Source: a virus (lineage: Duplodnaviria; Heunggongvirae; Uroviricota; Caudoviricetes). From it: a stretch of DNA of 27,982 nucleotides. The notes under the pieces are model-generated. The model was not told where the DNA came from and did not search any database. It saw nothing but the letters and a program-made list of their open reading frames with translations. Location: the IMG/VR virus record IMGVR_UViG_2850808358_000003; one strand, 5' to 3'. Both the position numbers and the translations under genes were made by a program. This document shows, piece after piece, positions 19,476 through 20,336 of this stretch. Numbering within the stretch: position 1 is the stretch's first letter; each line of letters begins with the position of its first letter.

Positions 19476-20336
19476 GAGTTTTCGAAAGAGTGGAAGGATG
19501 CCAACGATAAATGGAATGCCATGTGGGCTGTCAAAATTGAGCAGACCAAAGACGGCAAACATTATGTCGCGGGTATTGGCCTCAGCATGGAGGACACGGA
19601 GGAAGGCAAACTGAGTCAGTTTCTGGTTGCCGCTAACCGTATCGCATTTATTGACCCGGCAAACGGGAATGAAACGCCGATGTTTGTGGCGCAGGGCAAC
19701 CAGATATTCATGAACGACGTGTTCCTGAAGCGCCTGACGGCCCCCGCCATTACCAGCGGTGGAAATCCACCGGCATTTTCCCTGACATCAGACGGAAAGC
19801 TGACCGCTAAAAATGCGGATATCAGTGGCAGTGTGAATGCGAACTCCGGGACGCTCAACAACGTCACGATTAATGAGAACTGTCAGATTAAGGGGAAACT
19901 GTCAGCCAACCAGATTGAAGGCGATATTGTCAAAACGGTCAGCAAGTCTTTCCCCCGCACGAACAGTTATGCCAGCGGCACCATCACGGTAAGAATCAGT
20001 GATGATCAGAAGTTTGACCGGCAGGTCATGATACCTCCAGTGTTATTCCGCGGTGGTAAGCATGAGAATTTCAACAGTAATAACCAACAGTCATACTGGT
20101 ATTCAACCTGCCGGTTAAGAGTGACCCGCAATGGTCAGGAGATTTTTAATCAGTCCACGACGGATGCTCAGGGCGTATTTTCCTCAGTTATAGATATGCC
20201 TGCCGGACAGGGGACGCTGACACTGACATTCACCGTATCTTCATCAGGAGCGAATAACTGGACACCAGCAACCAGTATCAGCGATCTGCTGGTTGTGGTG
20301 ATGAAAAAATCCACAGCAGGTATCAGTATCAGCTGA
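19463..20336 (+). pseudogene. J: J 3' portion with a C-terminal (receptor-binding) domain divergent from lambda
   Basis: Frame continues ...[30 protein letters not shown]... as in lambda J, then diverges over the last ~150 residues. Confidence 0.85.

Follow-up and report, generated by a model that had tools for sequence, protein, structure and literature searches.

The J locus and the prophage around it

The window, by which we mean the whole stretch of DNA analysed here (27,982 nucleotides, IMG/VR virus record IMGVR_UViG_2850808358_000003), carries tail genes in the order tail assembly protein I remnant, J, lom, stf and tfa, as in lambda and PhiR29_2. In the ORF list the J locus is broken into three pieces: an ORF at 15501-18041, two overlapping ORFs at 18224-19449, and an ORF at 19251-20336. 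The features discussed below are as follows.

2010-2086, minus strand: tRNA-Arg
2187-2262, minus strand: tRNA-Met
2414-3235, minus strand: Q antiterminator
3620-4669, minus strand: DUF968 gene
15501-18038, plus strand: 5' part of J (codons 1-846), the lambda-like body of this tip attachment protein (ORF, DNA identity, Pfam)
18026-18038, no strand: left copy of the 13-bp IS4 target-site duplication, CAGCAGACTGGAG (overlap of the lambda matches and junction sequences)
18039-19462, plus strand: IS4 element, 1424 bp, with ends TAATGCC...GGCATTA and a frameshifted transposase gene (99.0-99.3% to IS4/InsG, phage records)
19463-19475, no strand: right copy of the 13-bp IS4 target-site duplication (overlap of the lambda matches and junction sequences)
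19476-19871, plus strand: J 3' fragment, lambda-like part, codons 847-978, Phage_Tail_Tip region (DNA identity, Pfam)
19872-20336, plus strand: divergent C-terminal receptor-binding module of J, A8/phi330 type, codons 979-1132 plus stop
20064-20093, plus strand: hairpin at J residues 1043-1052, corresponding to phi330 E953-S962 and identical in the window and phi330
20250-20270, plus strand: hairpin ANNWTP at J residues 1105-1110, corresponding to phi330 A1015-P1020, followed by T1111A
20354-20373, plus strand: terminator-like hairpin with a T run, just past the J stop codon
20403-21002, plus strand: lom (Ail/Lom outer-membrane protein), intact (Pfam Ail_Lom, 397 bits)

The window does not hold an uninterrupted translatable J: the IS4 element at 18039-19462 cuts it at codon 846. 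The first J ORF (846 amino acids, with the same N-terminal start as lambda J) runs three bases into IS4 and stops at 18041. When IS4 was cut out in silico, the two J fragments (15501-18038 and 19476-20336) joined in frame over 3399 nt, giving a reconstituted protein of 1132 amino acids, equal in length to lambda J. Pfam domains FNIII-A_GpJ, Phage-tail_3, Ig_J and Ig_J_second are located in the 5' fragment, Phage_Tail_Tip spans residues 845-972, and Ig_GpJ_C lies at the C-terminus; all score far above their cut-offs. The full lambda-type architecture, from N-terminal hub domains to the C-terminal receptor-binding domain, is therefore present in the reconstituted protein.

The inserted element has the hallmarks of IS4, for which terminal inverted repeats and a target duplication of 11-13 bp are expected: TAATGCCGATCAGTTAAGG at its left end with the inverted counterpart at its right end, a 13-bp duplication, and 99% identity to annotated IS4. 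The lambda matches on either side of it overlap by 13 lambda bases (3031-3043 of the lambda comparison sequence), and its flanks match J, lom and stf of lambdoid phages in a megablast search against phage records. The intact 442-amino-acid transposase was not found; the gene is split into ORFs at 18224-18637 and 18493-19449. Compared with the 1426-bp copy in Escherichia coli RM10740, the window IS4 has 11 substitutions and 1-bp deletions at 18269 and 18557, one of which falls in a C run and the other outside any homopolymer. The window IS4 is probably immobile on its own.

Relative to an intact relative in E. coli F344, the prophage is badly decayed. The match to the F344 relative starts at 7211, 318 nt into the portal gene, where a partial IS600 (6390-7211) abuts and truncates it, and the terminase, W and the 5' end of the portal gene are absent from the window. 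At a deletion junction at 14823-14841 (19 nt common to both flanks), the first ~245 nt of the tape-measure gene are joined to the K/I overlap, so that M and L are gone entirely and H and K for the most part. The downstream genes lom, stf (1057 amino acids) and tfa are intact. A full IS600-like element at ~281-1544 is inverted relative to the partial copy (99.76% identity), and the segment between the two copies, which includes the Q antiterminator, the DUF968 gene and both tRNA genes, runs on the minus strand, counter to the late genes. An IS600-mediated inversion of the segment would fit this arrangement. The right flank (24800-27982, 36-45% GC) is 98.8% identical to E. coli tfaQ, pinQ, ydfK, ynfT and ydfJ but differs in length by ~134 bp, and its ydfK, ynfT and ydfJ put the prophage at the Qin locus. 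Judging by its IS load, the strain may be Shigella-like or otherwise rich in IS elements.

Two further features were seen in these surroundings. Positions 1-327, which abut the left IS600, contain part of a baseplate hub gene of the P2 type (Pfam Phage_GPD, 31 bits) and are left over from a different, unrelated prophage. The Rfam family IS009 (RF02111) scores 221 bits at 24577-24775, inside the 3' part of tfa.

J in this window is thus an IS4-disrupted pseudogene inside a defective prophage, and it is dead in this genome because IS4 splits the gene at codon 846.

The divergent C-terminal block of J

A global alignment of the reconstituted J with lambda J (NC_001416) showed ~97% identity up to approximately residue 978. 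Per block of 50 residues, 47-50 are identical up to residue 950 and 39/50 over residues 951-1000; the following blocks fall to 20/50, 19/50 and 15/37. Over the last 154 residues (~979-1132) identity to the LamB-binding tip of lambda is 42.7% by tblastn and 45% in the alignment when gaps are excluded, with indels in two loops of the tip. The DNA follows the same course. The window matches lambda by blastn at 95.7% over 15402-18038 and at 94.2% over 19463-19894; the match (94-96%) ends at 19894 and resumes only inside lom, from ~20875. In 60-nt windows, nucleotide identity to lambda drops from 91-100% to 78% at 19836-19895, stays at 33-63% over the remainder of J, the intergenic spacer and the greater part of lom, and returns to 91-93% at 20936-21055. 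The switch from ~95% to ~50% nucleotide identity is sharp and far beyond chance.

A reading made earlier from the sequence alone had claimed that the C-terminal receptor-binding region of J, at 19700-20336, diverges from lambda. Our alignment confirms the divergence (42-45% over the last 154 residues against ~97% upstream), and the high C-terminal identity to lambda J that would have spoken against it is absent. Both peptide strings quoted in that reading occur in the translation of the ORF at 19251-20336. Its extent needs correction: the divergent block covers ~19872-20333, and a start at 19700 takes in ~170-195 nt that are still lambda-like. It was also right that the 3' portion of J diverges, but it missed the IS4 interruption at codon 846, which makes this portion a fragment only.

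The divergent block is a recognisable receptor-binding domain. Pfam PF12421 (Ig_GpJ_C, 'Tip attachment protein J, C-terminal receptor binding domain') matches residues 1008-1132 with 124.3 bits against a curated cut-off of 26.2 bits, and the J 3' fragment has neither a stop codon nor a frameshift. The tip is 99.4% identical to that of A8 gpJ (one difference in 154 residues), 99.4% to that of RM10740, and 98.1% over the last 154 residues to that of phi330 by tblastn. Near-identity to characterised OmpC-binding alleles was therefore found over the whole 154 residues. Phage 21 J (OL657228) belongs to the same tip clade, with the same length and indel pattern, at 80.5% identity (~30/154 positions differ). 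The tip of lambda h434 (OM418627), a classical OmpC-using tip, belongs to the same domain family at 45-48% identity (45.3% by tblastn) and forms a separate allele class. Lambda J itself shares with the window the ~97% identical residues 1-978, a PF12421 tip and the order J-lom-stf-tfa, but differs in its 42-45% identical tip with indels in two loops and in binding LamB (PDB 8iyk/8xcj, with LamB).

A tblastn search with the last 154 residues matched 243 of 50,697 phage records. At least 95% identity was reached in 44 of the 243, mostly Stx1a-, Stx2a- and Stx2c-converting phages, ECOR-derived lambdoid phages, 2H10 and phi330. Below these lie classes near 77-81% (including phage 21 and BP-4795), at 58-60%, and at 43-46% (including lambda h434 and, at 42.7%, lambda). 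In a collection of 5,426 complete E. coli genomes, 1,507 records contain the module DNA with an identity of at least 95%. The tip module is thus common in E. coli prophages and Stx phages, and is an ordinary one.

Body and tip have different relatives. The central tail fibre of phi330 (vB_EcoS_phi330, PV189401), a viable phage, resembles the window in its tip, in both hairpins and in having lom downstream, whereas in the J body identity falls to 42-87% per block of 100 residues (over residues 101-1000), against 96-98% in the tip. The tip is a different allele of the J receptor-binding domain, and because the body of the window J is ~97% lambda-like and its tip is 98-99% like those of phages with bodies 42-87% identical, the evidence points to modular exchange. 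Recombination within the conserved stretch at residues ~964-986 very probably joined the A8/phi330-type tip to the lambda-like body. The exchanged block also takes in the spacer between J and lom and the greater part of lom itself, whose 5' two-thirds share the non-lambda mosaic block of the tip. Positions 19463-22565 are collinear with PhiR29_2 at 95.8% identity. The A8 gpJ chimera has the same layout as the window J, in that the 99.4%-identical tip takes over from a lambda J body near residue 964, but A8 gpJ is engineered and intact whereas the window J is a natural mosaic split by IS4. The window J also has T1111A and S951, where A8 and lambda have P at 951.

IS4 at the same site in other prophages

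The J/IS4 junction reads GATAACGCCAGCARACTGGAG|TAATGCCGATCAG. An exact search for it in the species-representative genome collection gave no match, and among complete E. coli genomes there was no 100% match to the window, the best match with IS4 in place being RM10740 at 96.2%. An IS4 insertion in J that agrees with this one to the base, and in its orientation, was found in RM10740, at argW/intS/yfdC, and in AREA_492 and two relatives, next to ompC (window 18026-19475; comparison sequences L004, 9622-11073, and L009, 4021-5472). The J::IS4 prophages occupy three different chromosomal loci, and the junction is rare (4/5,426 complete genomes).

In the window both copies of the 13-bp duplication read CAGCAGACTGGAG, with G at position 6; in the other prophages both read CAGCAAACTGGAG, with A at that position. 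AREA_492 bears another tip allele (156 differences over 874 nt). Between J::IS4 prophages the J flanks differ by ~5-6% and the IS4 copies by <1%, and other E. coli IS4 sites (ydcO and others) have 16-23 nt of left flank in common with the J site. Because the duplications match their own alleles, the tips differ, the flanks have diverged more than the IS4 copies and left flanks are shared among sites, this suggests sequence-specific, independent IS4 hits instead of shared ancestry; spread by recombination is an alternative. The site looks like an IS4 hotspot at J codons ~840-846.

The inducible, ECOR-derived lambdoid phage PhiR70_1 also carries IS4, in this case between E, the gene for the major capsid protein, and FI (2493-3942 of comparison sequence L010). 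Here it has a 12-bp duplication, GGCCCTTCGGGG, at a hairpin-like site. IS4 therefore travels inside viable phage genomes.

The receptor of the tip and the fate of J

Three independent lines of evidence point to OmpC as the receptor. A PDB sequence search retrieved the chain 'A8 gpJ 713' (9wca, 9wcb; E=1e-117) with 185/187 residues identical, and lambda gpJ (8iyk, 8xcj) at E ~1e-50. With K-12 OmpC as the query, three further chains of 9wcb came up, named 'Outer membrane porin C', so a complex of an A8-type tip with OmpC has been solved. A full-text search for '9WCA' found no paper, and the link from the PDB chain to the A8 construct is drawn from the deposited chain name, its sequence and the supplement of PMC11338833.

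The second line is functional. Brodel et al. (Nature 2024, PMC11338833) grafted the C-terminal parts of natural E. coli gpJ variants onto lambda gpJ at residue 964. The chimeras were screened on recipient cells that were deleted for lamB and carried ompC on a plasmid. Of 23 OmpC variants, 21 allowed DNA delivery by A8 and/or another chimera, 1A2, and the A8 producer strain was deleted for both lamB and ompC (PMC11338833). The 3' end of the 'GpJ A8' DNA given in the supplement corresponds to window 19764-20336, with at least 95.6% identity in the alignment despite machine-reading noise in the PDF text.

The third line is genetic. Phage phi330 forms no plaques on BW25113 with ompC deleted, and Plac-ompC restores them (PMC12502783). 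In the AlphaFold3 model of that study the E953-S962 hairpin points into the OmpC barrel, and the ANNWTP hairpin is described as OmpC-contacting (PMC12502783). Both of these OmpC-facing hairpins are identical in the window. The one private change, T1111A (codon GCA, 20268-20270), directly follows the ANNWTP hairpin; position 1111 is T in A8, RM10740, PhiR29_2, phi330 and phage 21. Lambda h434 also uses OmpC, according to the literature. We also modelled the last 186 residues with AlphaFold2 from the single sequence; the model (mean pLDDT 56.4, pTM 0.45) was too poor for a fold search, and is redundant given the solved structure of a 99%-identical chain. A 2026 preprint on receptor prediction deals with GpJ of Drexlerviridae alone and has no bearing here.

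Taken with the 9wcb structure, the A8 functional test and the phi330 genetics, the near-identity of the tips makes it very probable that the receptor of this tip is OmpC and not LamB. The suggestion of the sequence-only reading that the variant recognises a different receptor than lambda is thereby supported, as the near-identical A8 gpJ and phi330 work through OmpC. The A8/phi330-type tip docks as a trimer on the trimeric porin OmpC, where the lambda tip uses LamB, and we infer that the copy with T1111A would still bind OmpC were J repaired.

An alternative is that LamB, by itself or together with OmpC, serves as the receptor, as in phage 21, in place of OmpC alone. Phage 21, the next closest clade, differs from A8 and phi330 in having LamB as its native receptor, with OmpC and OmpF use arising by mutation; its use of OmpC is gained by a single J mutation, which suggests that receptor specificity is labile in the phage 21/A8/phi330 tip clade, and the private T1111A sits beside a predicted contact hairpin. 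We found no residue-level identity of the phage 21 OmpC-use mutation in the Borin et al. preprint. Since ~30/154 positions separate the window tip from phage 21, whereas A8 and phi330 are 99.4% and 98.1% identical to it and depend on OmpC in lamB-deleted or ompC-deleted hosts, we consider LamB binding very improbable. Decay by mutation once IS4 had killed the gene might also be thought to explain the divergence from lambda, as J is a pseudogene and the IS4 itself carries two frameshifts. This has next to no chance of being correct: the 3' fragment is free of stops and frameshifts, the switch in identity is abrupt while the upstream 846 codons are still ~97% lambda-like, and the tip is 98-99% identical at the protein level to those of functional phages and of the A8 construct. 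We rejected decay as the cause of the tip divergence on this near-identity to functional alleles.

The J 3' fragment might instead be expressed alone, from the ORF at 19251-20336, as a free OmpC-binding trimer that, for example, blocks superinfection by OmpC-using phages. This ORF of 361 codons begins in the right end of IS4 and continues in frame through J codons 847-1132, published structures show gpJ truncated to start at residue 713 as a stable trimer that binds its receptor, and the same J::IS4 junction recurs in other genomes. However, no sigma-70-like promoter was found in 19100-21100, the ORF starts out of frame inside the transposase gene, the fragment is without a signal sequence for reaching the cell surface, PGAP calls the equivalent fragments pseudogenes, and the junction occurs in only 4/5,426 complete genomes. 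The ORF is probably a chance one, and we regard its expression as a free trimer as very unlikely. A broader proposal, that the sequence around codons 840-846 is a preferred IS4 target at which J is recurrently and independently inactivated, possibly leaving a free OmpC-binding trimer that affects superinfection, strikes us as only slightly less doubtful.

With high confidence we identify window 19872-20333 as an A8/phi330-type gpJ receptor-binding domain, recombined onto a lambda-like body and inactive here. The module is idle in this genome, with J split at codon 846 and the Qin-locus prophage having lost genes needed to build particles; because J is an IS4-disrupted pseudogene and the prophage is defective, the receptor-binding domain recognises nothing here. 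The module, its modular exchange at residue ~964, its receptor and even the structure of its OmpC complex have all been published or deposited before, so the significance of the finding is small. Its practical value lies in annotation, as an IS4-disrupted J pseudogene with an OmpC-type (A8/phi330) tip in a defective Qin-locus prophage, and the recurrent IS4 insertion at the same J codon is one mildly useful lead.
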